Positions 18,301 to 63,437 of a DNA stretch of 64,000 bases are shown piece after piece. The translations under genes and the position numbers were made by a program. The notes beneath the pieces were generated by a model. It was not told the DNA's origin. It made no database searches and saw nothing but the letters and a program-made list of their open reading frames with translations. The stretch lies in the NCBI RefSeq assembly GCF_053078305.1, contig NZ_CP166879.1; one strand, 5' to 3'. Each line of letters starts with the position of its first letter. Within the stretch, counting starts at the first letter, position 1.

Positions 18301-19323
18301 GTGACCTTCTGGAGTATTTTACGCCAACGCTGCTGGGGGCTGGTGCTCGTGGTGGCGGGCGTCTGCGTGATTACGTTTATTATCTCGCATCTGATCCCCG
18401 GCGATCCGGCGCGGTTACTGGCGGGTGACCGCGCCAGCGATGCTATCGTGGAAAATATTCGCCAGCAACTGGGACTGGACCAGCCACTGTATGTACAGTT
18501 TTACCGCTACGTCAGCGACCTGTTTCATGGTGACCTGGGAACATCCATTCGTACCGGGCGTCCGGTGCTGGAAGAGTTGCGTATATTTTTCCCGGCGACG
18601 CTGGAGCTGGCTTTTTGTGCCCTGCTGCTGGCACTCTTGATTGGCATCCCGCTGGGCATACTCTCTGCAGTCTGGCGAAATCGCTGGCTGGATCATCTGG
18701 TGCGAATAATGGCCATTACCGGAATCTCCACACCTGCGTTCTGGCTTGGACTGGGCGTCATTGTGCTGTTTTATGGTCATCTGCAAATTCTTCCCGGCGG
18801 CGGAAGGCTTGATGACTGGCTGGATCCACCAACGCACGTTACCGGCTTTTATCTGCTCGATGCGCTGCTTGAAGGCAACGGTGAAGTCTTCTTCAATGCG
18901 TTGCAACATCTCATCTTACCGGCATTAACGCTGGCGTTCGTTCACCTGGGAATTGTCGCTCGCCAGATCCGCTCAGCGATGCTGGAACAATTGAGTGAAG
19001 ACTACATTCGTACCGCCCGGGCCAGCGGCTTGCCCGGCTGGTATATCGTTTTATGTTATGCGCTACCCAATGCGTTGATCCCATCGATTACCGTATTGGG
19101 TCTGGCGCTGGGCGATTTGTTGTATGGCGCAGTGCTCACCGAAACCGTTTTTGCCTGGCCCGGAATGGGGGCATGGGTAGTGACATCGATACAGGCGCTC
19201 GACTTCCCTGCGGTGATGGGATTTGCCGTCGTGGTTTCGTTTGCTTATGTGCTGGTGAACCTGGTAGTGGATTTGCTCTATTTGTGGATTGATCCGCGTA
19301 TCGGACGTGGAGGTGATGAATGA
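18301..19323 (+). CDS. ddpB: Dipeptide ABC transporter permease
   Basis: 340 aa polytopic permease; GTG start directly after the ddpA stop. Confidence 0.9.
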   Translation: MTFWSILRQRCWGLVLVVAGVCVITFIISHLIPGDPARLLAGDRASDAIVENIRQQLGLDQPLYVQFYRYVSDLFHGDLGTSIRTGRPVLEELRIFFPATLELAFCALLLALLIGIPLGILSAVWRNRWLDHLVRIMAITGISTPAFWLGLGVIVLFYGHLQILPGGGRLDDWLDPPTHVTGFYLLDALLEGNGEVFFNALQHLILPALTLAFVHLGIVARQIRSAMLEQLSEDYIRTARASGLPGWYIVLCYALPNALIPSITVLGLALGDLLYGAVLTETVFAWPGMGAWVVTSIQALDFPAVMGFAVVVSFAYVLVNLVVDLLYLWIDPRIGRGGDE

Positions 19324-20216
19324 TGCTAAGCGAGGAAACGTCCGCCGTACGCCCAGCAAAACAAACGCGATTTAACGGTGCAAAACTGGTATGGATGCTG
19401 AAAGGCAGTCCGCTCACCGTGACCGGCGCAGTCATCATTGTATTAATGCTATTGATGATGATTTTTTCACCGTGGCTGGCGACGCATGATCCCAACGCCA
19501 TTGATTTAACCGCCCGCCTTTTGCCGCCTTCTGCGGCGCACTGGTTTGGCACCGATGAAGTGGGACGCGATCTGTTCAGCCGCGTACTGGTCGGCAGTCA
19601 GCAATCAATTCTCGCCGGATTAGTCGTGGTTGCCATTGCGGGTATGATTGGTTCGCTACTCGGATGTCTATCCGGTGTGCTTGGCGGACGCGCAGACGCC
19701 ATCATCATGCGCATCATGGACATTATGCTGTCGATTCCTTCGTTGGTACTGACAATGGCACTGGCTGCCGCTCTCGGGCCGAGTTTATTTAACGCCATGC
19801 TGGCGATTGCTATTGTGCGAATTCCCTTTTATGTGCGCCTGGCGCGGGGGCAAGCATTAGTTGTACGCCAGTATACCTATGTTCAGGCGGCGAAAACCTT
19901 TGGTGCGTCGCGTTGGCATCTGATCAGCTGGCATATTTTACGTAACTCCCTGCCGCCGCTGATCGTGCAGGCATCGCTGGATATCGGTAGCGCGATTTTA
20001 ATGGCCGCCACGTTGGGATTTATTGGCCTGGGTGCTCAACAACCGAGTGCTGAATGGGGCGCGATGGTAGCGAATGGTCGCAACTATGTACTCGATCAGT
20101 GGTGGTATTGCGCATTTCCGGGGGTAGCGATTTTGCTTACCTCCGTCGGTTTTAATCTCTTTGGTGATGGTATTCGCGATCTGCTTGACCCGAAAGCAGG
20201 AGGAAAGCAGTCATGA
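19320..20216 (+). CDS. ddpC: Dipeptide ABC transporter permease
   Basis: 298 aa permease; 4-bp overlap with ddpB. Confidence 0.9.
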   Translation: MMLSEETSAVRPAKQTRFNGAKLVWMLKGSPLTVTGAVIIVLMLLMMIFSPWLATHDPNAIDLTARLLPPSAAHWFGTDEVGRDLFSRVLVGSQQSILAGLVVVAIAGMIGSLLGCLSGVLGGRADAIIMRIMDIMLSIPSLVLTMALAAALGPSLFNAMLAIAIVRIPFYVRLARGQALVVRQYTYVQAAKTFGASRWHLISWHILRNSLPPLIVQASLDIGSAILMAATLGFIGLGAQQPSAEWGAMVANGRNYVLDQWWYCAFPGVAILLTSVGFNLFGDGIRDLLDPKAGGKQS

Positions 20217-49298: not shown

Positions 49299-49526
49299 TT
49301 ACATGCTGTAACCAGGTTTCTTTATCAAAGCCTCCATTTGGGGCGCGATTTCGGCATCCCAGATAGCTTGCCATGATTCTGGTTGAATCTGCTGTAGAGA
49401 AATGCTTATCGAGCTATCTTTACTGTTCAGATGGCGAATAATAACGTCGGTAATATCTGCAGCAAGTGCTGCTTTTTGTTGTTCGTCCAGTTCACGCGGA
49501 AAACATTTAATGTCGATGTGCGGCAT
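49299..49526 (-). CDS. pptA: Tautomerase (4-oxalocrotonate tautomerase family)
   Basis: 75 aa from [28 protein letters not shown] with catalytic Pro at position 2; the ORF track extends it upstream. Confidence 0.9.
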
Positions 49527-49613: not shown

Positions 49614-50594
49614 CCAGGGCAAGATTACGAAAGCCTTCTCCCCGCAAGGACTGACGCCAGGTAGTTTCTGTCCATGGCTGCTTTTCGCATCTTACGTCTT
49701 AACCCTGCCTTGAATACCTTATCATTCGTCAAAATATTAATAGCAATGTGCCGTATCCCTGAAAATAATTCTGCTGCATTTCCTCTTCTTATTTTGCAGT
49801 CGTCTTCATTCATTACCACGTCCAGACGCCAGTGCAGCTTATTCTCCACGTGCCAGTGGTTTCGGATTGCTGTGGCGAACTTCTCTGCGGTTAAATCAGC
49901 AGAACTGATATAATATCTGACCGTCATTTCTGGCTCTTTCTTTTGTTCTGCTATTATTGAGCGAAATGAGACTGCCATGCATAATTTCTTCAGCCCTTTC
50001 CATTCAAACGTGAAATCAATAAGTTCATCAGGGATATCGCAGACAATATGGAGACGGATTTTAATGACATGAATCGCTCCCCTGCGGCGACTCTTGTCAT
50101 AAGAGTGCCGGAGCGTTTTTCCATCAATTGCAATGACGTCTTTATCATCTGAAGAATGGCAGTCACGCATCCAGTTAATAAAGCACTCGTGAAATTTTGC
50201 AGGACTGATACAGGATACAACTCTGGCAATGGTATCGTGAACAGGAATACCATTTTCAAAATCACCATATTGCTTCAAAAAATCGAGATGTGTTTCCCCA
50301 AAATCCTCTATATCTTCCCAACCTTCTGCACCAGAAACAACGGCACAAATAATCAACAGTAGAATATCCGATAATTTATGTTCCACTTTCCAGGCTTGTC
50401 TGTAATCGGGGATAATAGAAATATGTTCCATCAATTTTTTAAGTTCCATTTTGTTTCCTTAATTATGTAAGGAGTATTTGATCATGTATAAGCAATAAAA
50501 AACAGCTTTAGGTAATGAGGAACATATCAATTTTTAAACATAAAATGCGAATTATTTAGTACAAAAAGTGTACTTCCGATGATCTTTCCCTGCC
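49614..50594 (-). mobile_element. ydcC: H-repeat (ISAs1-family) element copy 1, transposase with internal deletion
   Basis: 274-aa frame (49625..50449) aligns to both ends of the roughly 378-aa H-repeat transposase but lacks about 100 central residues (junction [17 protein letters not shown]). Confidence 0.75.
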
Positions 50595-50862
50595 ATTAAA
50601 TAATGTCTTATTTGACCTTGCCAACATACAACAAAATAATTGAAATATATTCAAAATTAATTTAAACATTCATCAGGCGTCCTTTTCTAAAAAACCTAAT
50701 CATTTAATGGTTAAATTACAATCAAACAAACAAAGTAAACTGGAATTATAGTTGTGGTGCACTTCACGATTTTAGCATTCTTGCTCCTACATTTATACTC
50801 TCTGCCGCGGAAATTTGTTCTCGAAACTTAACTAAACCCAATCAATCATCCTTGCCTTATCG

Positions 50863-51366
50863 TTACTTGAATTTATCAAGACATTTATCATTGCTGACAC
50901 TTTCAATATTTATATGATATACAGTTCCTGTGTTTGAGATATATACTTCCTTAAGCTTATCAGTTTTACTCTCATTATTATAAAAGTAGCCCCCGATAAT
51001 TTTATTCTTCTTTGATATATAAGTGACAGTGTCAGTATGAACTCCACCATTTATTGTCATAATGAATGAGGCATCCAAGTTCATCGTACTTTCCCCCTTA
51101 AAATATATTTTACCATTAGAAATCACTTTGGTCTCAGAAACACCGTTAGGCTCGTCATTACTAATTAATATAAGTAAATCTACCATTTCGGATTTTTTAT
51201 CTCTTTCTTTATAACCACCAATATCATCCAGGATATTATTTGACACTTTTCCACAAAGCATCACTGAGTAATTATTCAAATTTTTGAGTTGAGAGCACTT
51301 TGCCACAAAAGAGAATGAAATAAATATCAAACCTACCGAAATGATTATTGTTTTTTTAAAATTCAT
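50863..51366 (-). CDS. Exported small protein, candidate immunity protein for the upstream effector
   Basis: 167 aa with N-terminal signal peptide MNFKKTIIISVGLIFISFSFVAKCS; 4 bp downstream of the effector stop; about 27% GC. Confidence 0.55.
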   Translation of the reverse strand: MNFKKTIIISVGLIFISFSFVAKCSQLKNLNNYSVMLCGKVSNNILDDIGGYKERDKKSEMVDLLILISNDEPNGVSETKVISNGKIYFKGESTMNLDASFIMTINGGVHTDTVTYISKKNKIIGGYFYNNESKTDKLKEVYISNTGTVYHINIESVSNDKCLDKFK

Positions 51367-51370
51367 TGTT

Positions 51371-53449
51371 TTAAAGAATCCTTATGTAATTAAGTGGAGG
51401 TGTTATTTCATCATTCAATACATACCAAGAATGCTCAAATGCTGGCCAACGCACTAAATCGAAGCCATCTGCTGCTGGGTTTATTCGCCGTGTAACTTCT
51501 CTGGCATCTGACAAACTACATCCTTTATCCGCCCAATAATTAACGCCTAAACTACCACTAGGTGTCAATCGATGGCTTACCATTATGTATTTTTGCTTAC
51601 TTGCCCAAAAGTATCCCCCGGCATCGCAAGAAAAATAGGCATTTTCAACTGGGAGTTGGTTATTGGGTTCTGTAGTAAAAAAATCATCATCTGACGGATT
51701 TCTATACTTTCCATAATTTCTATAATTCTCACGACCAGTTAGATGTATGGTACCTCTGCCTTTAAATCTTGCACCATCACCAACAACATTATTTCCAAGC
51801 TTAAGTCCCTGTTCTGTTCCTGGCTCATACATATCAAAATAACTCGAATCACCATTCTCTATAAAAGACGCAAATCTGCCTGTTTCTCTCGCCATCTGAC
51901 CGAAATAATGCGCAATCCGCAATGGGGTTGTAATTAAGTACTTCCTTAGTGACTTTGACAGTTCATTTTTCAACCCTGCAGGTCTTATCACCTCACCACT
52001 GCTATTTTGTCCTTGGCTAGTAATCCGCTCAATTAGAGTGTCTTTACTTAATGGTCTTGTAAGTTCTGATGTCATGGGATAAGCATTTTGATAACGTCTT
52101 ACCACACTTATAATATCATTTTCTCCTAACCACCCACATTTCCTGAAATGTGCAATAAACTGCCTGGGATCAAAATGCCATACACGCCTGGCAGGTAACG
52201 GATTATCTACCAAACAAAGCGCCTTACAGTGTTCTATCAGCAAATCCAGGTCAGGCTCTGTCATCGGCTTACTCAATACGTCATTGGGTGATTTCAGCCA
52301 CTCAAACCGTGATTCCACGGTGGCGCTGTCCCATTCTAGCGGAAAATGACAAATCATCCGACTTAGGTCATTGCGGGTTGTACACAGGATTGTTGGTGAA
52401 TTGCACTGGCTGTTGGTGTCCGCATCATCGTTCACCAGTTTCCACCCTGTCCAGTGTGGAAAATCACCGTCGCTGTAAACCCTGATATCTCTCGCCCCTA
52501 AGTTAACAACGCCTTTACCCTGTGGCGTATTGATTGTTCGCCACAGCGGCGCATCCGCCGGGACTAATTCTTCATATTCTGTATTAACAACCCGACCAAA
52601 ACGCAGCATCTCATAACCGGCACTTGGGCTTTTCGGATAGAGTTGCAGCGCGTAGGAATAGAGATTGTATTCATAATCCTTACCATCAGCATTAATCAAG
52701 GGAGAACCTACTTCAGTATAGGTATCACTCAGCACTTCATGCTGCTGACGCGTCACCATCGTACAATTGCCTTTATCAAAACTCATTGTGACATACAATG
52801 GCACGCTGGTTCTTTGTACCGGACTGTTGTTCGCAAGCGAGTTTTCTTCCGGCATGTCCCCATAAATCGGTGTTCCGGCAGGGAGATAAAAATGACTATC
52901 ACCGTAAACCACATCAGTTCGTCCATCTTTATTCAGGTCTGTTTCCGGTGATATTCTTCCTGTGATTTTCTGAATGTTTTCATCATCACAAAAAATCTGA
53001 AAATGAAAGGCGTTCTGTCCGTCCACCATCCCTGCTGCACCAACCGGTTCTTTCCGGTATAGCGTGTTTCCCGGCTGCACATTACTGTCAATGCTTCTCA
53101 GGTGCATATATAATGAGTAATAGACGATTTTACCCTCTTCTCCACTACCGATTTCTGTTTCATGTTTTATCAGAACATAGCCTTTATCCGTAACTCCGTT
53201 ATAATTTAACGGAGGAACTGTATTTTCCGCTGGTTCTGGCTGGCGTATTGAAATAACCTTCCCATCGGCAATACACCTAACAGTCTCTGACAGATTGCCG
53301 TTCAAATGAACTCCACCATGCCAAGAACGACCGCTATTCATTGGGAAATTTCTTTCTGGATCAACAGACATCATTCTGTTTACCCAGTCAGAGTCTTTTT
53401 CAGTGTCTATATGCGCATGCAATATTGGAGGGCTGATTATCATTATCAA
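51371..53449 (-). CDS. Candidate T6SS peptidoglycan-hydrolase effector: M23-like domain plus GH19/lysozyme-like C-terminal domain
   Basis: M23-like block HGGVHL…ADGKVIS…YYSLYMHLRS…GAAGMVDGQNAFHFQIF; GH19-like block YFGQMARETG…GDGARFKGRGTIHLTGRENYRNYG; first gene downstream of vgrG. Confidence 0.6.
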   Translation of the reverse strand: MIMIISPPILHAHIDTEKDSDWVNRMMSVDPERNFPMNSGRSWHGGVHLNGNLSETVRCIADGKVISIRQPEPAENTVPPLNYNGVTDKGYVLIKHETEIGSGEEGKIVYYSLYMHLRSIDSNVQPGNTLYRKEPVGAAGMVDGQNAFHFQIFCDDENIQKITGRISPETDLNKDGRTDVVYGDSHFYLPAGTPIYGDMPEENSLANNSPVQRTSVPLYVTMSFDKGNCTMVTRQQHEVLSDTYTEVGSPLINADGKDYEYNLYSYALQLYPKSPSAGYEMLRFGRVVNTEYEELVPADAPLWRTINTPQGKGVVNLGARDIRVYSDGDFPHWTGWKLVNDDADTNSQCNSPTILCTTRNDLSRMICHFPLEWDSATVESRFEWLKSPNDVLSKPMTEPDLDLLIEHCKALCLVDNPLPARRVWHFDPRQFIAHFRKCGWLGENDIISVVRRYQNAYPMTSELTRPLSKDTLIERITSQGQNSSGEVIRPAGLKNELSKSLRKYLITTPLRIAHYFGQMARETGRFASFIENGDSSYFDMYEPGTEQGLKLGNNVVGDGARFKGRGTIHLTGRENYRNYGKYRNPSDDDFFTTEPNNQLPVENAYFSCDAGGYFWASKQKYIMVSHRLTPSGSLGVNYWADKGCSLSDAREVTRRINPAADGFDLVRWPAFEHSWYVLNDEITPPLNYIRIL

Positions 53450-53590
53450 TAGTCCTTATTAAGCTTATAAAACATGTAACGAGTATGAATTATTCATTCA
53501 CAGAGCATCTCTGCTTAGAAAGCAGAAAATCACAGTATTATTGTATTATTACTACCGTCATCCGTTATCTTTATCTGAATGATTATCCCA

Positions 53591-55737
53591 CTACGAGAAC
53601 ATGAACTTCACTCTGGTCTCATCATTACCGATATCATCATCAGTATTACTATCCGTATCATTAGTGACTAAAGTGTTCAGGACAGTGGGTTGCAGTGTCG
53701 GTACCGGTGTCCCCGGACTCCCCCCACCATTAAGATTTATCTTCGGCCCCACTATATCCACGCCGCCCGGCTGAATAACGATAAACGAGCCACCCACCTT
53801 CAGGCTTATCCGGCTGCTGCTCTCCAGCACGATATCCCCGTCCACCTTTATCCCCAGCGCGCCACTCACCTTCCTCGCCAGGTCCCCCTTCACCACCAGG
53901 CTGTGTTTCCCCTCCACCAGACTGATATGGTTCCCCGTCGTCTTATGCTCCTGCTTCCCTTCCACCGTCACTTTACGGTCGTTTCTGACGTACAGACCGT
54001 CATCGTGACTCACGCTCACCGTCCGGTCATTCGTCACCTTCAGAGTCTGGTCATTACGTACTGTGATACGCCGGTCGTTCGCCACCGTGATACTCTGGTC
54101 GTGGCCCCCTCTTTTTTTGTACCGACCTGAACCGTCTGGCCCTTCACCACCGTTATCTTCTGGTCGTTACCAATGGTTTCCGTGTGGTCATGCTTCACGT
54201 CCGTCGTCCGGTCGTTGAGCACTTCCGTATCCATGTTCTTCTGCGCATGGATATACACCTGCTCATTACTGGTGGCGTCTTCAAACCGCAGCTCGTTAAA
54301 TCCGCTTCCTTTATAGGTTTTTGACCGGATGGTCATCTGCGTCTTCGTTCCCGGCAGGTCGCCCGGCGAACGGTTGTCCTCATGGTACGTCCGCCCCATG
54401 ATTATCGGCTGGTCCGGGTCGCCGTTCAGGAAGTCCACTATCACCTCCTGACCCACCCGCGGTATCGCCAGATTACCGAACCCCGGCCCCGCCCACGCCT
54501 GCGATACACGCACCCAGCATGAACTCGCCTCCGTCATCCCGTGATAACGGTCCCAGTGGAACTTCACCCGTACCCGGCCATGTTCATCGCAGAAGATTTC
54601 CTCTCCCGCAGGCCCGGTGACAATGGTGCTCTGTGGCCCGTCCACCTTCGGTTTGCTTTGCAGCCGTGGACGCCACGTCCGGTCTGCCGGTATCACCTCT
54701 AACTGATTTCCCAGTGTGGTTCCTCTCCCCTGGCTGCCGTGCAACGCCTGCGGCTGGCTTCCTGACAGTATGCTCTGTACCACCTGCCATTCACGGTTCA
54801 GCATCTTCTGCGGATGCCCCGTCAGCGTAAACCGCGTTCCCGGCCACAGCTTCGGTGAATTACTCTGCCCTGTGGCCTTTTCCGCATCACTGCGCAGGCT
54901 GTCCATCTGATACAGCGTGAAATCCTTGCCGTGCTGCTCATCCTTGAACCTTCCCGGATAATCAAATATCTCGTACTGCGCGTGCTGTCCGTTCAGCCTC
55001 TCACCCTGCTGTTCGTATATCCCCGGCCAGTCCGGCACCTTAAACGTGTAATCCTGACTCTGCACCGACGACGGGCGGACATGCGCCTCATAACGGAACA
55101 TACTGAGACACTCCGTCTCCGCTCCTGCCGATGTGTCCGGGTTAAACGGAAGCTCTCCCGCCTGTGACAGCCCCGCCACATCGTCGCACAGCGTCAGCTT
55201 CTGCTCCGGGCTGTCCGCCGCAAACCGCTCAAAGAAGAAAATCCCCTCCTCCGCCCACAGCCGGGACAGAAACGCCAGGTCGCTCTCTCCGTACTGGACA
55301 CAGAACTCCCGCGCCGGATGGTCCTCATAAAACAGCGGCGTCCACTCCGTGACGCCGTTCTCGTTCAGTAACGTGGCCGATATCGTCCGGATATCCTGCT
55401 GCTGAAAAATACGAAAGTTCTGCCGCAGCCCGCACCGCCATAACGGCGGCTCAATACGCAGGTGATAACGCATCTGCCAGCCGTTGTTCTCCTGCATGCC
55501 AAAGCCCGCCACCACGCCAGTGACATAACGCAGCGGAATGACGCCCTGCCAGATGGTCAGCGTTGCGTTCTTCTCCAGCAGCATCTCCGCCGTCTGCATA
55601 AAAGAGTCGCTGGCAACATCCACACTCATCACAAACGGATAAGACTGGTTCTGGATTAACCTGAAATTCACCACTGCAAAGGTGTCCGGCTCCTGGCCGT
55701 CAACCTCCAGCGTAAAGCGAAGACCTTTTAAGGACAT
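53591..55737 (-). pseudogene. vgrG: vgrG (T6SS spike) copy 1, frameshifted
   Basis: ORFs 54040..55737 and 53591..54085 are consecutive VgrG segments in different frames; shift maps to the C5 run at 54105-54109 (N-frame KKEGATT, C-frame GGHDQSITVANDRR; copy 2 reads KKEGGHDQ). Confidence 0.75.
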
Positions 55738-55755
55738 AAATACCTCTCTGGTATA

Positions 55756-56040
55756 TCAGCCTATATTTACCGTGCCGCCACCAATAACCACGCCGCCGCA
55801 GTCAATGGCATCACCGGTTCTGGCGGCGGGCAGGCCGTCAATAAAGACGGTTGAAGAGCCTCTGGCGATTTTTCGGGGATGAGGTGGATGCTTCGGTTTA
55901 GCATGCGGCGTCGGCGGATCTCCCTGACGGGCTGCGGGGAGACCATCGATAAAAACGGTGGATGACCCGGCGGTGATGACGGTCTCGTAATAACCGTCGT
56001 GCTGAGTGCCTTTGTCGGTGAGTTTGGCTGCTAAAGGCAT
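55756..56040 (-). CDS. PAAR-domain protein (T6SS spike tip), copy 1
   Basis: 94 aa with two GLPAAR(Q/T)GD motifs; 18 bp upstream of vgrG copy 1. Confidence 0.85.
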   Translation of the reverse strand: MPLAAKLTDKGTQHDGYYETVITAGSSTVFIDGLPAARQGDPPTPHAKPKHPPHPRKIARGSSTVFIDGLPAARTGDAIDCGGVVIGGGTVNIG

Positions 56041-56395
56041 AATTCCTCCTGTTCAGAATTTCTACAGCAGCAGGTTTCAAAAATCCGGAGAAATATTCAA
56101 CGAAACATTAATCACTTCACCGGATATTCTGACACGTACCTTCACTAGTCTATTTAAGTAATACAAATTGTTGGCGTGTAATACCCCATTCTCCTTTCAT
56201 TATCTTTGCCTTTAAAACAGAAAGTTCTTGAAATATATATTTAAGGAAAAAACCACGATAAACACCACAAGGATAATATAAATCACCAAGTTATCGAAAA
56301 TTTAAAAAATCACGCGTCAGATCTGATAAAAAATAGGCTATCACATGTAACTCCTGGGCGATCTCGCAAAAATTAAATTATAAAAATACATGACG

Positions 56396-57376
56396 CAGGG
56401 CAAGATTACGAAAACCCGCTCCCCGCAAGGACTGACGTCAGGTAGTTTCTGTCCATGGCTGCTTTTCGCATCTTACGTCTTAACCCTGCCCTGGATACCT
56501 TATCATTCATCAAAATATTAATAGCAATGTGCCGTATCCCTGAAAATAATTCTGCTGCGTTTCCTCTTCTTATTTTGCAGTCGTCTTCATTCATTACCAC
56601 GCCCAGACGCCAGTGCAGCTTATTCTCCACGTACCAGTGGTTTCGGATTGCTGTGGCGAACTTCTCTGCGGTTAAATCAGCAGAACTGATATAATATCTG
56701 ACCGTCATTTTGGGATTTTTCTTTTGTTCTGCTATTATTGAGCGAAATGAGACTGCCATGCATAATTTCTTCAGCCCTTTCCATTCAAACGTGAAATCAA
56801 TAAGTTCATCAGGGATATCGCAGACAATATGGAGACGGATTTTAATGACATGAATCACTCCCCTGCGGCGACTCTTGTCATAAGAGTGCCGGAGCGTTTT
56901 TCCATCAATTGCAATGACGTCTTTATCATCTGAAGAATGGCAGTCACGCATCCAGTTAATAAAGCACTCGTGAAATTTTGCAGGACTGATACAGGATACA
57001 ACACTGGCAATGATATCGTGAACAGGAATACCATTTTCAAAATCACCATATCACTTCAAAACATCGGGATGTGTTTCCCCAAAATCCTCTATATCTCCCA
57101 GTCTTATGCACCAGAAATAACGGCGCAAATAGTTAACAGATAGAATATCTGGCAATTTATGTTCCACTTTCCAGGCTTGCCTGTAATCGGGGATAACAGA
57201 AATATGTTCCATCAATTTTTTAAGTTCCATTTTGTTCTCCTTAATTATGTAAGGGGTATTTGATCATGTGTAAGCAATAAAAAACAGCTTCAGGCAATAA
57301 GGAATATCTCAATTTTCAAACATAAAATGTGAATTATTTAGTACAAAAAGTGTACTTCTGATGATCTTTCCCTGCC
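56396..57376 (-). mobile_element. H-repeat (ISAs1-family) element copy 2, degraded
   Basis: About 93-95% identical to copy 1 over about 980 bp with the same internal deletion junction ([17 protein letters not shown]), plus extra frameshifts splitting the frame (ORFs 56406..56951 and 56855..57049). Confidence 0.75.
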
Positions 57377-57453: not shown

Positions 57454-57933
57454 TTAAAGATTGCCATCTTCATTGCCGACGAAATAAATATCAAATGAAC
57501 ACTCCAATCCAAGATTAGCCATTATTTTCATCTGCTCAGGCCATAAAGTTGGCCCACCGTGCCAATTCAATGATCTCCAGGTACAGTCAATACCCATTGA
57601 AATATTTTCTAATGCTTGCAATTTTGCAATATTTGATGATTTAGGTCCAAGTTTGTGAAGTAGCCAATCCAGATGTTCTCGAATATCTTTCGAGTTCACT
57701 AGATTTTCTGACGAGAGCATCCAATATGAATTTTTTGCATATCTTTTCTTTCCCGATAGAGTAATAATTTCATCTCCTTTTATATTAATTGATGTTGGCT
57801 CAAGTTCTAAGTGAATACTTATTTCATTAGGGTGAGTATTACCTGTGTAAATCAAGAGGCTAGCATAGCACTCATCACAACTTGGATATTCATGAGATAT
57901 CGGGGTAAGCCTTGATTGTATATTCTTAATCAT
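57454..57933 (-). CDS. Candidate immunity protein for the PAAR-like toxin
   Basis: 159 aa, no signal peptide; start overlaps the toxin stop by 4 bp (ATGA). Confidence 0.5.
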   Translation of the reverse strand: MIKNIQSRLTPISHEYPSCDECYASLLIYTGNTHPNEISIHLELEPTSINIKGDEIITLSGKKRYAKNSYWMLSSENLVNSKDIREHLDWLLHKLGPKSSNIAKLQALENISMGIDCTWRSLNWHGGPTLWPEQMKIMANLGLECSFDIYFVGNEDGNL

Positions 57934-59063
57934 AAATAATCCTCTATGTTTCCTAAAATATTTCCTGAGTCATCAATATAATCACCATTATCAAGTATTC
58001 GACCATGGTGATCACCTCGTAAGCGTAAATCTTTTTTCAACTTTTCTAAAGCTTTCCCCCATTCTCTCCTGTTAATATTTTTACCAAAAAATTCATTTAA
58101 CTCCCTGGCAGTTCTTGCCTCAAGAGTATTACCTCCAGTTTGTAATACTCTCGGAACTCTTCCCGCAGCGCCAACGCTTGGAGGAACAGGAATAGGCAAT
58201 CCATTTGCATCCAGCACAATTTTAGCACCGCTCCTCCCCATTCTGCCAACCGATTTTATTGCAAACTTCGCTGAAAACTTGACCAAACCTTTCACCAGTG
58301 CTCCAACCCCGGTCATAAGTTCCAGCCATGGCTCAACCTCCATCGCCATTGCTTGGGTTTCATTGGCAGGTTTCAACAATGGCTCTCTAGGATCAATAGT
58401 TTCCATTACCTCCCTGTTGGTCTCATTCGCCCGCTCCATAATTTGGGTATCCATCCCCAACCCTCTCGCCAGAGCAATATTACTTTCCATTTGGGCAATG
58501 TCATTTTGCATCTGACCTTTGGCAATCAATGCACCCAACATATACCAGCCATTAATAAATGCCTTGCCTAATCCTATCATTGCATCTGCTTCTTGCTTTT
58601 TGGACTCAAGCTCAAACTCTTGCTGTTGTCTTTGCAGTTCCAGATACCTGGCCCAAAGCGATGATTCTTTAACAGGTATTATCTGATTTGGCAGGTTTGT
58701 CTGGGTATACAGTTTTCCAACAGTATTATCATTATTCATGGCAACCAGCGAAAGATTCCTGGCTACCGGCTTTCCCTTGCACTTTATATGATCCACGCCT
58801 GTCAGTATCCGGCAGTCACCGCTGCCCAGACTGGTGCCAGAACTGACACCTTTCCCGGCATTACTTCGTGTACCTGCAATAATACAGTCCACGGTCAGTA
58901 CTGGATTGCCCCGTGCCCTGACATTGCTGATATAAATTTTCTCATGTGTCAGGTCCTGAAAGCTGTCAAACGGCACTATCGCATCACCAACCTTGCAGAC
59001 ATCAGGCGCAATACATATCGCAACGTACTTCGATTCACGACAACCAATATGATTTTCAGCCAT
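57930..59063 (-). CDS. Candidate T6SS effector: N-terminal PAAR-like (DUF4150-type) domain with C-terminal toxin domain of unassigned family
   Basis: N-terminus CRESKYVAICIAPDVCKVGDAIVPFDSF fits the PDVC…P.P(F/Y) PAAR-like pattern; C-terminal 100 aa basic with a DHHG…N…N segment. Confidence 0.55.
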   Translation of the reverse strand: MAENHIGCRESKYVAICIAPDVCKVGDAIVPFDSFQDLTHEKIYISNVRARGNPVLTVDCIIAGTRSNAGKGVSSGTSLGSGDCRILTGVDHIKCKGKPVARNLSLVAMNNDNTVGKLYTQTNLPNQIIPVKESSLWARYLELQRQQQEFELESKKQEADAMIGLGKAFINGWYMLGALIAKGQMQNDIAQMESNIALARGLGMDTQIMERANETNREVMETIDPREPLLKPANETQAMAMEVEPWLELMTGVGALVKGLVKFSAKFAIKSVGRMGRSGAKIVLDANGLPIPVPPSVGAAGRVPRVLQTGGNTLEARTARELNEFFGKNINRREWGKALEKLKKDLRLRGDHHGRILDNGDYIDDSGNILGNIEDYL

Positions 59064-59997
59064 GAGGTCCCCTCTGCTCCGTCGTCAAAACAATACGTTG
59101 TGGAAGAGAATCCACGGGGAGCGTTAAGCGCCAGAGTAGTGTTAGTTGCTCATCGTCTGTGTGGATGGTCAGTGTGTCAGCCAACAATGGGCGCAGTTCT
59201 ACGTTTTTATCAGAGCGGTAAAACAAATACGCCAATAGTCTAATATCTGGAAGGAAACAAATTTGTTCCATTTTAGAAGGTAATAGGCCGTTCAATATAA
59301 TTTTTTCATTGCCAATTAAATAACCATCGTATTGTTGTTCTGGTGGAGAATAATTCATGAATGCAAAATCGAATTCATCTGGATAAAAAGGTTGAACAGT
59401 CTTTTGCCACTGTTCTGTAAAACCTCTGGCATAGCGCAATCGTGAAGGCCAGCTACGGCAAATAGCTCCTGGTGAGGCAGATAACTGTGGAGCTGGACAG
59501 GGCGATTTATCGCCAAGCGTTATCAGGGAGGGAATAACAATGCCTACAGGATTAAATTCACTGGCTGACGCCAGTTCATGGCGTAACAGTACCCGATCAG
59601 TTAATTCAGGTTCGCTAAGTTGCCAGCGGTTAGATATATATTGCCATTGGCAAGGGCCACATATATCAAATTGGCGCTGAAGATTACCAACCTGTAAACT
59701 GGCCTGCCATCGAGTGGTTTCCCCGGTGGCATGCCATGCGTGTCCATTTAATAAAACATCTGCCCTGACTTTTCTGCAAACCAAATCGGTTGCTGTTTTA
59801 AGACTGCTGCTTTCCGGTTCGCCGTACCAGGAGTCGGTCATCAGTGGCAGTCGCTGCTCATCCGCAATCAGACAGAGACCGCCGCTATATGAAAAATCAA
59901 ATGTCTGATTAACTACCACTACTGTGAATAACTCACCATAATATCCCACTTTTTCGAACTGAAAGTGAGGTAAACCAGTTTCATTTTCAATATTCAT
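59056..59997 (-). CDS. Candidate DUF2169-type adaptor protein
   Basis: 313 aa between vgrG and a PAAR-like effector, overlapping the effector start by 8 bp; family assignment is by context and size. Confidence 0.5.
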   Translation of the reverse strand: MNIENETGLPHFQFEKVGYYGELFTVVVVNQTFDFSYSGGLCLIADEQRLPLMTDSWYGEPESSSLKTATDLVCRKVRADVLLNGHAWHATGETTRWQASLQVGNLQRQFDICGPCQWQYISNRWQLSEPELTDRVLLRHELASASEFNPVGIVIPSLITLGDKSPCPAPQLSASPGAICRSWPSRLRYARGFTEQWQKTVQPFYPDEFDFAFMNYSPPEQQYDGYLIGNEKIILNGLLPSKMEQICFLPDIRLLAYLFYRSDKNVELRPLLADTLTIHTDDEQLTLLWRLTLPVDSLPQRIVLTTEQRGPHG

Positions 59998-60012
59998 GTT
60001 AATTTCTCCAGA

Positions 60013-61977
60013 TTAATCCAGATCAATATCTGCGCCGAAAATATTGATTTTATCTTTTCCTTCAATCTGGATACTTTTACCATTGAGAATGATAGTACCG
60101 TCCTTATTCATTTTCAGTAAGCATTCACCGACTTTAATGGTGAGGCTGTTGGTAACTGTCAGGCTGTAATCTTCTCCAACTTTAATATCCTGGGATTTCA
60201 CGACTTCTTCGGTATCTTTTCCTATTATCTTACTGATTTGATCGTTCCCTACATCCTTGTGACGATCGTGGGTAACATCCAGCCGCTGATCGTTTTGTAC
60301 CGTAATGGTCTGGTCATTCGCCACTGTCACTTTCTGGTCATGACCACCTTCCTTTTTGCTCCCCACATTCACCGTCTGGCCCTTCACCACCGTTATCTTC
60401 TGGTCGTTACCAATGGTTTCCGTGTGGTCATGCTTCACGTCCGTCGTCCGGTCATTCAGCACTTCCGTATCCATGTTCTTCTGCGCGTGAATATAGACCT
60501 GTTCCTTATCTGTGGCGTCCTCAAAGCGCAGCTCGTTAAATCCGCTTCCTTTATAGGTCTTCGACCGGATGGTCATTTGTGTCTTCGTTCCCGGCAGGTC
60601 GCCCGGCGAACGGTTGTCTTCATGGTATGTGCGTCCCGTCACAATGGGCTGGTCCGGGTCGCCGTTCAGAAAGTCCACTATCACCTCCTGACCCACACGC
60701 GGTATCGCCAGATTACCGAACCCCGGCCCCGCCCACGCCTGCGATACACGCACCCAGCATGAACTCGCCTCCGTCATCCCGTGATAACGGTCCCAGTGGA
60801 ACTTCACCCGTACCCGGCCATGTTCATCGCAGAAGATTTCCTCTCCCGCAGGCCCGGTGACAATGGCGCTCTGTGGCCCGTCCACCTTCGGTTTGCTTTG
60901 CAGCCGTGGACGCCACGTCCGGTCTGCCGGTATCACCTCTAACTGATTTCCCAGCGTGGTTCCTCTCCCCTGGCTGCCGTGCAGCGCCTGCGGCTGGCTT
61001 CCTGACAGTATGCTCTGTACCACCTGCCATTCACGGTTCAGCATCTTCTGCGGATGCCCCGTCAGCGTAAACCGCGTTCCCGGCCACAGCTTCGGTGAAT
61101 TACTCTGCCCTGTGGCCTTTTCCGCATCACTGCGCAGGCTCTCCATCTGGTACAGCGTGAAATCCTTGCCGTGCTGCTCGTCCTTGAACCTTCCCGGATA
61201 ATCAAATATCTCGTACTGCTCCAGCTGTCCGTTCAGGTTCTCACCCTGCTGCTCATACATCCCCGGCCAGTCCGGCACCTTAAACGTGTAATCCTGGCTC
61301 TGCACCGACGACGGGCGGACATGCGCCTCATAACGGAACATACTGACACACTCCGTCTCCGCTCCTGCCGATGTATCCGGGTTAAACGGAAGCTCCCCCG
61401 CCTGTGACAGCCCCGCCACATCGTCGCACAGCGTCAGCTTCTGCTCCGGGCTGTCCGCCGCAAACCGCTCAAAGAAGAAAATTCCCTCCTCCGCCCACAG
61501 CCGCGCCAGAAACGCCAGGTCCGACTCCCCGTACTGCACACAGAACTCCCGCGCCGGATGGTCCTCATAATACAGCGGCGTCCACTCCGTGACGCCGTTC
61601 TCGTTCAGTAACGTGGCCGATATCGTCCGGATATCCTGCTGCTGGAAGATACGGAAGTTCTGCCGCAGCCCGCACCGCCATAACGGCGGCTCAATACGCA
61701 GGTGATAACGCATCTGCCAGCCGTTATTCTCCTGCATGCCAAAGCCCGCCACCACGCCGGTGACATAACGCAGCGGGATGACGCCCTGCCAGATGGTCAG
61801 CGTCGCCTTCTTCTCCAGCAGCATCTCCGCCGTCTGCATAAAAGAGTCGCTGGCAACATCCACACTCATCACAAACGGATATGACTGGTTCTGGATTAAC
61901 CTGAAATTCACCACTGCAAAGGTGTCCGGCTCCTGGCCGTCAACCTCCAGCGTAAAGCGCAGACCTTTTAAGGACAT
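60013..61977 (-). CDS. vgrG: VgrG (T6SS spike protein), copy 2, intact
   Basis: 654 aa; N-terminal about 545 aa near-identical to copy 1, followed by gp5-like repeats (VTVANDQTITVQNDQRLDVTHD…). Confidence 0.88.
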   Translation of the reverse strand: MSLKGLRFTLEVDGQEPDTFAVVNFRLIQNQSYPFVMSVDVASDSFMQTAEMLLEKKATLTIWQGVIPLRYVTGVVAGFGMQENNGWQMRYHLRIEPPLWRCGLRQNFRIFQQQDIRTISATLLNENGVTEWTPLYYEDHPAREFCVQYGESDLAFLARLWAEEGIFFFERFAADSPEQKLTLCDDVAGLSQAGELPFNPDTSAGAETECVSMFRYEAHVRPSSVQSQDYTFKVPDWPGMYEQQGENLNGQLEQYEIFDYPGRFKDEQHGKDFTLYQMESLRSDAEKATGQSNSPKLWPGTRFTLTGHPQKMLNREWQVVQSILSGSQPQALHGSQGRGTTLGNQLEVIPADRTWRPRLQSKPKVDGPQSAIVTGPAGEEIFCDEHGRVRVKFHWDRYHGMTEASSCWVRVSQAWAGPGFGNLAIPRVGQEVIVDFLNGDPDQPIVTGRTYHEDNRSPGDLPGTKTQMTIRSKTYKGSGFNELRFEDATDKEQVYIHAQKNMDTEVLNDRTTDVKHDHTETIGNDQKITVVKGQTVNVGSKKEGGHDQKVTVANDQTITVQNDQRLDVTHDRHKDVGNDQISKIIGKDTEEVVKSQDIKVGEDYSLTVTNSLTIKVGECLLKMNKDGTIILNGKSIQIEGKDKINIFGADIDLD

Positions 61978-61995
61978 AAATACCTCTCAGACATA

Positions 61996-62280
61996 TCAGC
62001 CTATATTTACCGTACCGCCACCAATGACCACACCACCACAGTCGATGGCATCACCGGTTCTGGCGGCGGGCAGGCCGTCAATAAAGACGGTTGACGAGCC
62101 TCTGGCGATTTTACGGGGATGAGGGGGATGCTTCGGTTTAGCATGCGGCGTCAGCGGATCTCCCTGGCGGGCTGCGGGGAGACCATCGATAAAAACGGTG
62201 GATGACCCGGCGGTGATGACGGTCTCGTAATAACCGTCGTGCTGGGTGCCTTTGTCGGTGAGTTTGGCTGCTAAAGGCAT
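61996..62280 (-). CDS. PAAR-domain protein, copy 2
   Basis: 94 aa, differs from copy 1 by a single residue; 18 bp upstream of vgrG copy 2. Confidence 0.85.
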   Translation of the reverse strand: MPLAAKLTDKGTQHDGYYETVITAGSSTVFIDGLPAARQGDPLTPHAKPKHPPHPRKIARGSSTVFIDGLPAARTGDAIDCGGVVIGGGTVNIG

Positions 62281-62420
62281 AATTCCTCCTGTTAAGAATT
62301 TCTACAGCAGCAGGTTTCAAAAATCCGGAGAAATATTCAACGAAATATTAATCACTTCACCGGATATTCTGATACGTACCTTCACTGGTCTATTTAAGTA
62401 ATACAAATTGTTGGCGTGTA

Positions 62421-62584
62421 TTAAGTTCCATTTTGTTCTCCTTAATTATGTAAGGAGTATTTGATCATGTATAAGCAATAAAAACAGCTTCAGGAAATAA
62501 GGAATATCGCAATTTTTAAACATAAAATGCGAATCGTTCAATACAAAAAAGCAGCGTTGCGTAATCTTTCCCTGATTAAATACG
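62421..62584 (-). repeat. Orphan 5'-end remnant of an H-repeat element
   Basis: About 160 bp matching the 5' terminus and transposase start region of copies 1 and 2 (ttaagttccattttgtt…ctttccctg); no downstream body. Confidence 0.65.
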
Positions 62585-62819: not shown

Positions 62820-63437
62820 TTAAATAATGACATTCCTTTTTAATACTTCTTGTAATTTCGGTAACTGACATACAGCATCAGCAATCGCACTGATATTTGT
62901 GGCATTATCCTGAAACCATTCATGCCCAGGCCCCCATGTGCGCATAGTGCAAAGATAACAGTCCACCAGCGTTAGTTGCTCACCAAACGCATAAGGTTCA
63001 GCGGTCAATTGTGAATTCAGCCAGATATAAAGCGATTTACGATATTCAATAACATTCTTCTTTAACTGTTCGGGTGCGTCAGGAGCCCAACGCTCAGGGT
63101 AATCGGCGAAAGTGAATGTTGGATAGACATTAGCAACCAGCCAGACCAATAGCCGTTGAAACTGCTGACGTTCGGCGCGCCCAACCGGTGGCGCAAGGTC
63201 CGGGCGACGATCGAGAACCATCAATGCAATCGCCGCTGTCTCCGTCATAATCTCGTCATTTTCCAGCGCCAGTGTCGGAATCTGACACAACGGGTTCAGG
63301 GTTTTCAATAACTCGCGTGAAGTTCCCTCGTGGTCAAAACCACTGACATCAACGAACTGATAAGGAATATCAGCCAGTGTTAGCATCAGCTCACTGATTG
63401 TAGAGCCCCATCCGGGTACGCCATACACCTTAATCAT
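62820..63437 (-). CDS. yncG: Glutathione S-transferase homologue
   Basis: 205 aa from MIKVYGVPGWGSTISELMLTLADIPYQFVDV. Confidence 0.85.
   Translation of the reverse strand: MIKVYGVPGWGSTISELMLTLADIPYQFVDVSGFDHEGTSRELLKTLNPLCQIPTLALENDEIMTETAAIALMVLDRRPDLAPPVGRAERQQFQRLLVWLVANVYPTFTFADYPERWAPDAPEQLKKNVIEYRKSLYIWLNSQLTAEPYAFGEQLTLVDCYLCTMRTWGPGHEWFQDNATNISAIADAVCQLPKLQEVLKRNVII

Follow-up and report, generated by a model that had tools for sequence, protein, structure and literature searches.

The window analysed here, a 64,000-nucleotide stretch of contig NZ_CP166879.1 (assembly GCF_053078305.1), spans the Escherichia coli yncG-pptA hot spot, which is the RhsE position in K-12. The locus holds two T6SS cargo cassettes of PAAR, VgrG, effector and immunity genes, each of which has a relic of the H-repeat element ISEc1 after it, and an H-repeat stub lies beside yncG (Table 1). 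The linker between copy 2 and the next PAAR gene also follows an H-repeat in ECNB21-M121 and 33F4, and its final ~130 bp are common to the region downstream of the stub. Besides the H-repeats, the array offers recombination a second kind of substrate, the 2.1-kb PAAR-vgrG direct repeat. On the pptA side, the H-repeat right end joins its flank exactly as in K-12 ydcC, and thus the pptA-proximal slot is ancestral.

Table 1. Features of the yncG-pptA locus in the window (window coordinates).
Feature	Position	Strand	Description
pptA	49299..49526	-	conserved right flank
H-repeat/ISEc1 copy 1	49615..50592	-	978 bp, defective, lacks ISEc1 nt 533-844
Copy 1 ends, CAGGG...CCCTG	IRL 50580-50592, IRR 49615-49627		11/13 positions match
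Copy 1 ORF	49625..50449	-	274 aa, truncated ISAs1-family transposase, S130-E234 replaced by K
Cassette adjoining copy 1	50863..56040	-
Presumed immunity gene	50863-51366	-	copy-1 cassette, 167 aa
M23-like effector	51371-53449	-	copy-1 cassette
vgrG	53591-55737	-	copy-1 cassette, frameshifted
PAAR	55756-56040	-	copy-1 cassette
PAAR + vgrG 5' direct repeat, 2.1 kb	54090..56180	-	~96% identical to 60330-62420
Linker	56041..56395	-	copy 2 right end to next PAAR gene
H-repeat/ISEc1 copy 2	56396..57374	-	979 bp, same 312-bp deletion
Copy 2 terminal inverted repeats	56395-56406 / 57364-57375		intact
Cassette from stub to copy 2	57454..62280	-
DUF4279	57454-57933	-	stub/copy-2 cassette
Tox-PAAR-like effector	57930-59063	-	stub/copy-2 cassette
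DUF2169	59056-59997	-	stub/copy-2 cassette
vgrG	60013-61977	-	stub/copy-2 cassette
PAAR	61996-62280	-	stub/copy-2 cassette
H-repeat left-end stub	62421..62574	-	154 bp, ISEc1 nt 1-155, 87.7% identity
yncG	62820..63437	-	conserved left flank of island

Copies 1 and 2 were aligned with intact 1291-bp ISEc1 copies from AHM8C212RI and K-12 (ydcC), which encode a 378-aa transposase. Both copies lack the identical 312 bp, ISEc1 nt 533-844, and are joined at the same point, between 50062 and 50061 in copy 1 and between 56843 and 56842 in copy 2. The gap is in frame, such that a single Lys stands for S130-E234 at a net cost of 104 residues. A first-pass annotation of the window had proposed that about 100 residues of an ISAs1-type transposase are skipped in both copies, and the alignment it called for bears this out; it had also held that there would be no deletion if an intact reference of about 274 aa carried the same junction, which fails because the intact element measures 1291 bp and encodes 378 aa. 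A natural short isoform was ruled out, as relatives at 37-54% identity have lengths of 366-400 aa. Neither microhomology nor a repeat was found at the breakpoints (CATGTCATTA on one side, AAATCCGTC on the other). An imperfect 14-nt hairpin (50064-50077 / 50087-50100) adjoins the left breakpoint.

The 274-aa product of copy 1, catalogued as an "ISAs1 family transposase" (WP_000420746.1), matches the NCBIfam ISAs1 model NF033564 at 245 bits (cut-off 70) and retains a complete N-terminal DDE_Tnp_1_assoc domain (PF13808). The NF033564 match is split into two stretches, whereas YdcC is matched end to end, and the Pfam DDE_Tnp_1 domain (PF01609) is represented in both copies by profile positions 139-200 of 200, as opposed to 3-200 in intact YdcC. 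Of the DDE triad, D109 and E306 are kept, but the near-invariant D172 lies in the lost segment. In a family alignment of 41 sequences (35-53% identity), D109 and E306 are invariant, D172 is absent only from the deleted copy, and 17 more near-invariant positions fall inside the deletion. Catalytic residues were assigned by this conservation because a search of solved structures with intact YdcC gave only chance matches to CheY (E~1). Since the second Asp of the triad is lost, the product would be unable to catalyse transposition and, judged by residue conservation, is almost certainly catalytically inactive. At 978 and 979 bp, copies 1 and 2 fall short of an autonomous element (1291 bp, an ORF of ~378 aa and a complete DDE triad) and are defective ISEc1 derivatives, not functional family members.

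Both copies carry further lesions. The Shine-Dalgarno sequence of copy 1 is weakened from AAGGAG to AAGGAA by loss of a G at ~50456. Copy 2 is the more decayed, as the first-pass annotation had noted, with a T inserted at ISEc1 nt 234 (window ~57140), an A missing at nt 278 (~57097) and a stop at codon 60 (CAA to TGA, 57051-57053); its counterpart in PS10-3 carries the PGAP flag "frameshifted; internal stop". A scan for promoters and terminators across copy 1 gave 6 sites against 4.9±2.4 in shuffled sequence, which is no excess.

Members of the ISAs1 family have terminal inverted repeats with CAGGG ends (ISfinder). Consistently, both copies start with CAGGGAAAGATCA and finish with TAATCTTGCCCTG, which are complementary at 11 of 13 positions, the same as in intact copies; the terminal inverted repeats of both copies are intact. 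The target-site duplication of the family is 8-10 bp. A search for direct repeats flanking copy 1, copy 2 or nine related copies, intact K-12 ydcC included, found none. The stub reaches from IRL to codon 3 plus 2 nt, has no right end, and is fused to sequence ~130 bp upstream of the first PAAR gene. Its identity as a left-end stub had been correctly recognised, although its end was placed 10 nt too far, at 62584. It is found in 695 of the 5426 complete genomes searched and forms a fixed left boundary of the island beside yncG.

The two deleted copies differ at 44-46 positions, which are distributed very unevenly. Of these, 30 fall in nt 1-362 and 13 in nt 972-1273, on the 5' and 3' sides, respectively, of a 295-nt core that contains the junction. 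Divergence accordingly runs at 8% over nt 1-362, 0-0.7% in the core and 4% over nt 970-1291, and a permutation test rejects uniformity (p<1e-5). In PS10-3 none of the 44 differences falls within the core; in the window 2 of 46 do, both being private SNPs of copy 2. Such a pattern, with 30 differences in the 362-nt 5' arm and 13 in the 321-nt 3' arm, is that of a mosaic formed by gene conversion or homologous recombination. Seven linked SNPs at nt 855-948 are present in all deleted copies and absent from intact ones. A 40-nt junction probe matched only 15 of the 5426 complete E. coli genomes, although ISEc1-like DNA is in 5339, so that the shared junction is no chance resemblance. On these sequence comparisons, the deletion arose once.

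One account, put forward in the first-pass annotation, is that the deletion predates a duplication of H-repeat plus cassette, after which the copies diverged by point mutation only. The single shared event at its root stands, and the shared junction agrees with it, as does the repeated array itself, in which the PAAR-vgrG segments are ~96% and the H-repeats ~95% identical. The copies are mosaics, however, and not plainly diverged duplicates. Besides their non-uniform divergence, the deleted core is found on at least three different 5' arms and at least three different 3' arms across strains, and in AHM8C212RI, whose two-cassette layout is the same, the copy 1 slot is filled by an intact ISEc1. 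In the window, copy 1 has the ancestral pptA-anchored 3' arm (nt 970-1291), in that it agrees there with the pptA-anchored fragment of ECNB21-M121 at every variable site, which puts a crossover at nt 948-970. Because gene conversion can spread a lesion from one repeat to another, finding it in both does not show when they were duplicated, and we regard duplication followed by point mutation alone as unlikely.

Other strains carry the products of such exchanges. The copy-2 slot of Z1323HEC0462 holds an intact ISEc1. The pptA-proximal copy of ET350 is of copy-2 type up to nt 976 and of copy-1 type from nt 1054, and the M23 cassette has been lost; a hybrid in A30 has its crossover at nt 1261-1269, and the 5' arm of L019 changes type between nt 120 and 178. 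Within vgrG, 1504D004 and ES5 each show a single clean switch, from 55 informative sites of one type to 66 of the other. Every rearrangement seen has its crossovers in homologous stretches of H-repeat or vgrG. The position of the elements coincides exactly with the cassette boundaries, and with the ET350 crossover inside an H-repeat, their earlier description as cassette boundaries and recombination substrates is upheld.

We therefore favour, at a probability of roughly 0.75, the reading that a single ISEc1 deletion spread among the H-repeat slots by recombination and that the relics now act as passive blocks of homology. One blunt, in-frame 312-bp deletion would have occurred in an ISEc1 copy at the yncG-pptA locus, taking out the middle of the catalytic domain, with the second DDE Asp, such that transposition would no longer be catalysed. 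The deleted core would then have been moved onto other H-repeat slots by RecA-type homologous recombination or gene conversion, with the ~95% identical direct H-repeats of the array as substrates. Spread of this kind would explain why both window copies carry the deletion on otherwise diverged arms. The relics would persist as ~1-kb homology blocks that no longer behave as transposons and, together with the 2.1-kb PAAR-vgrG repeats, would provide the sites at which strains delete, retain or exchange cassettes. A role for RecA, conversion as opposed to double crossover, and the direction of transfer are inferred; the ~20 sequences compared are too few to settle the direction or number of events, and an ancestrally duplicated deleted element with two flanking conversions would give the same pattern.

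The 274-aa product might instead have been kept as a functional protein, for instance as a truncated transposase whose N-terminal DNA-binding part lets it inhibit ISEc1 transposition or regulate the island. In favour are the preserved reading frame across the deletion and the complete N-terminal DDE_Tnp_1_assoc domain. Most strains have an uninterrupted copy 1 ORF, and P0106-P0111, P0114 and P0119 (99 contigs for P0119) are among the open haplotypes. An in-frame outcome is, however, expected by chance for one deletion in three, frameshifts have hit this allele in copy 2 and in 33F4, and a G is missing from the copy 1 Shine-Dalgarno sequence. The dN/dS of deleted copies (0.24-0.59) is mildly higher than that of intact pairs (0.12-0.21), on counts too small to judge selection on the ORF. 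A retained function is consequently very doubtful. Equally doubtful is the specific form in which the protein, retaining the full N-terminal domain and the last third of the transposase without its catalytic core, would bind ISEc1 ends and thereby silence intact ISEc1 or bridge the H-repeat boundaries for ordered cassette exchange; if it did, T6SS cargo shuffling would use the H-repeats as active "attachment sites", and they would not be passive scars.

A further alternative is that the relics are moved in trans by intact ISEc1, or that paired relics move cassettes as composite transposons. Because copies 1 and 2 each retain two intact terminal inverted repeats and further ISEc1 copies are present in most E. 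coli (ISEc1-like DNA occurs in 5339 of 5426 complete genomes, at a median of 5 places per genome), the elements could in principle be mobilised in this way, and directly repeated IS copies do bracket the cassettes. The distribution of the deletion argues otherwise. The deleted copies seen are confined to the yncG-pptA locus context with one exception, a fragment in OU349849.1. Transposition to the prophage region of OU349849.1 was rejected, as 1.8 kb of locus DNA moved along; the relocated copy is flanked by 565 bp and 264 bp of locus DNA, and bringing such flanks with it is not what inverted-repeat-bounded transposition would do. Ends were read for ~19 deleted copies from other strains, none of which was at a new inverted-repeat-bounded site or had a target-site duplication. 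No such duplication surrounds any cassette, outer ends included, and although bracketed by IS copies, the cassettes are confined to the yncG-pptA interval in every locus read; neither the outer duplication nor the same unit elsewhere, as a composite transposon would show, was found. The rearrangements have crossovers within homology, as described above, and transposition of H-repeats has not been observed (PMC3032704). Mobilisation in trans is thus highly improbable. The elements had been called immobile, which fits the lack of new sites and duplications; with both inverted repeats intact, they are better described as non-autonomous.

Finally, independent occurrence of the same deletion at a hot spot, for which the hairpin beside the left breakpoint might be invoked, can practically be discounted given breakpoints without repeat or microhomology, seven linked SNPs common to all deleted copies, and a junction found in so few genomes, all at this locus.

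For annotation, WP_000420746.1 is to be read as a protein with an internal deletion that is almost certainly inactive. None of these findings alters the present view of IS elements, Rhs loci or the T6SS. A literature search for the deletion allele, or for H-repeats as boundaries of vgrG islands, found nothing specific, and one apparent ISEc1 match turned out to concern ISEc12.

The relics belong with the H-repeats (H-rpt/ISEc1) of E. coli Rhs elements, being the same element with 95-98% DNA identity to K-12 ydcC outside the deletion; the 1291-bp frame, CAGGG...CCCTG ends, pptA-side slot and right-end junction are all shared. Among the K-12 H-repeats, ydcC and yhhI are intact and ybfD, ybfL and yncI are defective, and there too a defective copy (yncI) lies beside an intact one (ydcC). 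The window copies differ in their rare 312-bp in-frame allele, and in accompanying VgrG-linked cargo cassettes rather than Rhs core and tips. In the Salmonella enterica group D2 O-antigen cluster, a recombination junction carries an H-repeat remnant, which bounds gene blocks of different origin and is the proposed mediator of their joining (PMC3715488). The model there is a transposition cointegrate (PMC3715488), in contrast to the homologous H-repeat and vgrG crossovers seen here. The cassettes resemble the vgrG islands or orphan modules of the E. coli T6SS (Ma et al. 2018, as cited in the excerpted text of PMC6730261), which are PAAR-VgrG-adaptor-effector-immunity units outside the core cluster. 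That excerpted text does not discuss H-repeats as module boundaries, and the present finding is about the IS relics that lie between modules and not about the effectors.

A further likeness is to the Rhs "rearrangement hot spot" loci, in which repeats drive unequal recombination and displaced toxin/immunity remnants are kept (PMC3032704). The repeats lie at the same loci, and AHM8C212RI has an Rhs core fragment after its H-repeat. The window itself lacks an Rhs core, and its homology is supplied instead by H-repeat relics and vgrG 5' regions. Use of the relics as homology for cassette loss or swap is ordinary for the yncG-pptA locus, which offers a worked example, with crossover points readable from the SNP patterns of natural isolates, of T6SS cargo-array remodelling by plain homology at the old RhsE hot spot.

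Both H-repeat copies of the window (copies 1 and 2; ISEc1, ISAs1 family) lack nt 533-844 of the element, which confirms the shared internal transposase deletion noted in the first-pass annotation. Intact ISEc1, as represented by the copy in strain AHM8C212RI and by K-12 ydcC, spans 1291 bp, has CAGGG and CCCTG at its ends and codes for 378 aa. The deletion junction, CATGTCATTA joined to AAATCCGTC, is the same in the two copies and has no microhomology in either. The deletion is in frame and leaves one Lys in place of S130-E234, yielding the peptide junction reported earlier. An imperfect 12-14-nt hairpin lies directly beside the left breakpoint (50064-50077 / 50087-50100) and also occurs in copy 2 (56845-56856 / 56870-56881); it might have favoured the break.

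A transposase of about 274 aa is not the natural form of this subfamily, since full-length relatives in an exhaustive representative search have 366-400 aa. When YdcC was aligned with 39 relatives from this search (35-53% identity), D109 and E306 were invariant, D172 was missing in the deleted copy only, and 17 more near-invariant residues fell inside 130-234. The second Asp of the DDE triad is thus lost from the protein. The Pfam DDE_Tnp_1 profile is covered at positions 3-200 in YdcC but just at 139-200 in the deleted copies, and the NCBIfam ISAs1 model matches YdcC end to end and the 274-aa product in two pieces. That this product retains a function is unlikely. Its ORF is open in copy 1 and several haplotypes, but it is broken in copy 2 and in strain 33F4, the Shine-Dalgarno sequence of copy 1 has lost one G, and dN/dS is 0.24-0.59 in comparisons with deleted copies versus 0.12-0.21 between intact copies, with very few substitutions. 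The further decay proposed for copy 2 comprises two frameshifts (+T at nt 234, -A at nt 278) and a stop (CAA to TGA at codon 60). An inverted copy of the right terminal repeat, 81% matching, lies 66 nt inside the end of copy 2 (56396-56411 / 56478-56493), within the transposase coding sequence, and may be a subterminal ISEc1 binding site or a coincidence.

Among 5426 complete E. coli genomes, 15 matched a 40-nt probe spanning the deletion junction, and four of these have two junctions; ISEc1-like DNA is present in 5339 of the 5426. Seven SNPs at nt 855-948 are common to all deleted copies and absent from intact copies. Junction rarity and linked SNPs together show that the deletion arose a single time, as one historical event and not recurrently. 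The pptA-proximal H-repeats of strains ECNB21-M121 (19218-19706 of extracted locus L006) and 33F4 (19216-19704 of L008) carry another deletion, nt 52 joined to nt 829; as this differs from nt 533-844, the locus holds several independent deletion alleles.

Transcription of the yncG-to-pptA region in the window is on the minus strand, and the same chromosomal position in K-12 holds RhsE-ydcD-yncI-ydcC. The window layout is also found in strain PS10-3 and three more complete genomes, where PGAP labels the parts alike.

Features of the yncG-pptA locus in the window
Feature	Position	Strand	Remark
yncG	62820-63437	minus	left flank
H-repeat stub, 154 bp	62421-62574	minus	
yncG-side cassette: PAAR, VgrG, DUF2169, Tox-PAAR-like effector, DUF4279	57454-62280	minus	
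H-repeat copy 2	56396-57374	minus	
Linker, 355 bp			between copy 2 and M23-linked PAAR cassette
M23 cassette: PAAR, frameshifted VgrG, M23-like effector, 167-aa protein	50863-56040	minus	
H-repeat copy 1	49615-50592	minus	pptA comes next
pptA	49299-49526	minus	right flank

The M23-linked vgrG (53591-55737) is split by its frameshift into 565-aa and 164-aa ORFs. ECNB21-M121 and 33F4 have the gene whole, at 715 aa; the window strain may therefore be unable to deliver the M23 cassette. The effector at 51371-53449 (692 aa), named M23 metallopeptidase by PGAP, scores 23.5 bits against Pfam Peptidase_M23, below the cut-off of 28.7, with the match spanning residues 44-157, and its other ~530 residues have no Pfam match. 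K-12 yncI (12587-13640 of L009) is a second ISAs1-family relic, only ~67% identical, that lies just upstream of the intact ydcC; the occurrence of H-repeat-type relics in tandem at this slot is thus not restricted to strains with a vgrG island.

The deletion had been taken to predate a duplication of the element. One shared deletion event stands, but copies 1 and 2 are recombinant mosaics rather than simple duplicates, and so the shared lesion fails to date the duplication. Of 980 positions aligned between the two PS10-3 copies, 44 differ: nt 1-362 contains 30 of these, nt 970-1273 the other 14, and the 295-nt core around the junction none; an identical run this long appeared in 0 of 100,000 permutations. 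Window copy 2 has two private core SNPs, at nt 372 and at nt 518, the latter being the A/V difference in the peptide described previously. The core is not inherently invariant, intact copies differing at seven right-side sites and other full-length copies on the left side. The 3' arm of copy 1 (nt 970-1291) equals the pptA-anchored H-repeat fragment of ECNB21-M121 at every variable site, and its right-end/pptA junction is also found at K-12 ydcC, so that copy 1 too is a product of recombination, its crossover lying at nt 948-970. On the simplest reading, homologous recombination or gene conversion would have spread the deleted core among H-repeat slots that already existed and had diverged beforehand.

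AHM8C212RI carries the same two cassettes, with intact ISEc1 and then an Rhs fragment in the copy-1 slot, and in Z1323HEC0462 the copy-2 slot is occupied by an intact ISEc1 with a different haplotype. In A30, ECNB21-M121 and 33F4 the deleted element comes after the M23 cassette and carries a third 3' haplotype. On a metagenome scaffold the DUF4279 cassette precedes a deleted copy whose 5' arm changes type between nt 120 and 178. The deleted copy on the 1098-bp metagenome scaffold L020 has a left flank of a third, unrelated kind and deletion-linked SNPs at nt 855-871 only; it could be a further recombinant slot or an assembly chimera across the repeat.

Every relic begins precisely where an immunity-type gene ends, and on the right it meets either the PAAR linker or pptA. 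Natural rearrangements of three kinds cross over within repeated sequence. In ET350 the pptA-proximal element is of copy-2 type as far as nt 976 and of copy-1 type from nt 1054 onwards, and the strain lacks the M23 cassette; the A30 element switches type at nt 1261-1269; and single-cassette strains 1504D004 (L003) and ES5 (L004) have a hybrid PAAR-vgrG in which 55 informative sites of yncG-proximal type are followed by 66 of M23-linked type, with one clean switch near window 54457. The hybrid indicates a vgrG x vgrG recombination that removed the first cassette and copy 2, and the two window PAAR-vgrG 5' regions share ~96% identity across 2.1 kb. The exact boundary positions and the crossovers inside repeats uphold the roles of cassette boundary and recombination substrate assigned to the relics by the first-pass annotation.

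The search it proposed for marks of transposition found terminal inverted repeats intact at both ends of copies 1 and 2 and no flanking target-site duplication on any copy examined, intact K-12 ydcC included. According to the literature, transposition of H-repeats has not been observed (PMC3032704). With one exception, all deleted copies that could be placed lie at this locus; they comprise eight complete-genome loci and seven of the eight places of the commonest 274-aa protein cluster. In the exception, OU349849.1, locus DNA accompanies the element on both sides, 565 bp upstream and 264 bp downstream, which points to a larger rearrangement and not to movement by the element's own ends. This 1.8-kb piece (7293-9099 of L017), a partial immunity gene, deleted H-repeat and linker, sits among prophage-like genes (tail-fibre assembly, DUF977, lysis).

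The third copy is indeed an element-end stub, ISEc1 nt 1-155 from IRL to just beyond codon 3 at 87.7% identity. It is older than the deletion and far more widespread; the yncG-stub junction occurs in 695 of 5426 complete genomes, UTI89 among them, and is absent from K-12. In the stub, the ribosome-binding-site/ATG region of ISEc1 is fused to sequence that lies ~130 bp upstream of PAAR. Because the matching sequence after copy 2 is also AAAGGAGAATGG, the stub may have formed at short similarity. Its ATG opens a 13-codon ORF, MELNTRQQFVLLK, into the PAAR upstream region (62380-62425, minus strand); after copy 2, an 11-codon ORF read in a different frame occupies the corresponding position.

Both the element, present here as defective members, and the rearrangement hot spot have long been known. 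The feature is not surprising but provides a clean example of cassette turnover through homology. A precedent exists in Salmonella O-antigen clusters, where an H-repeat remnant lies at a recombination junction (PMC3715488).
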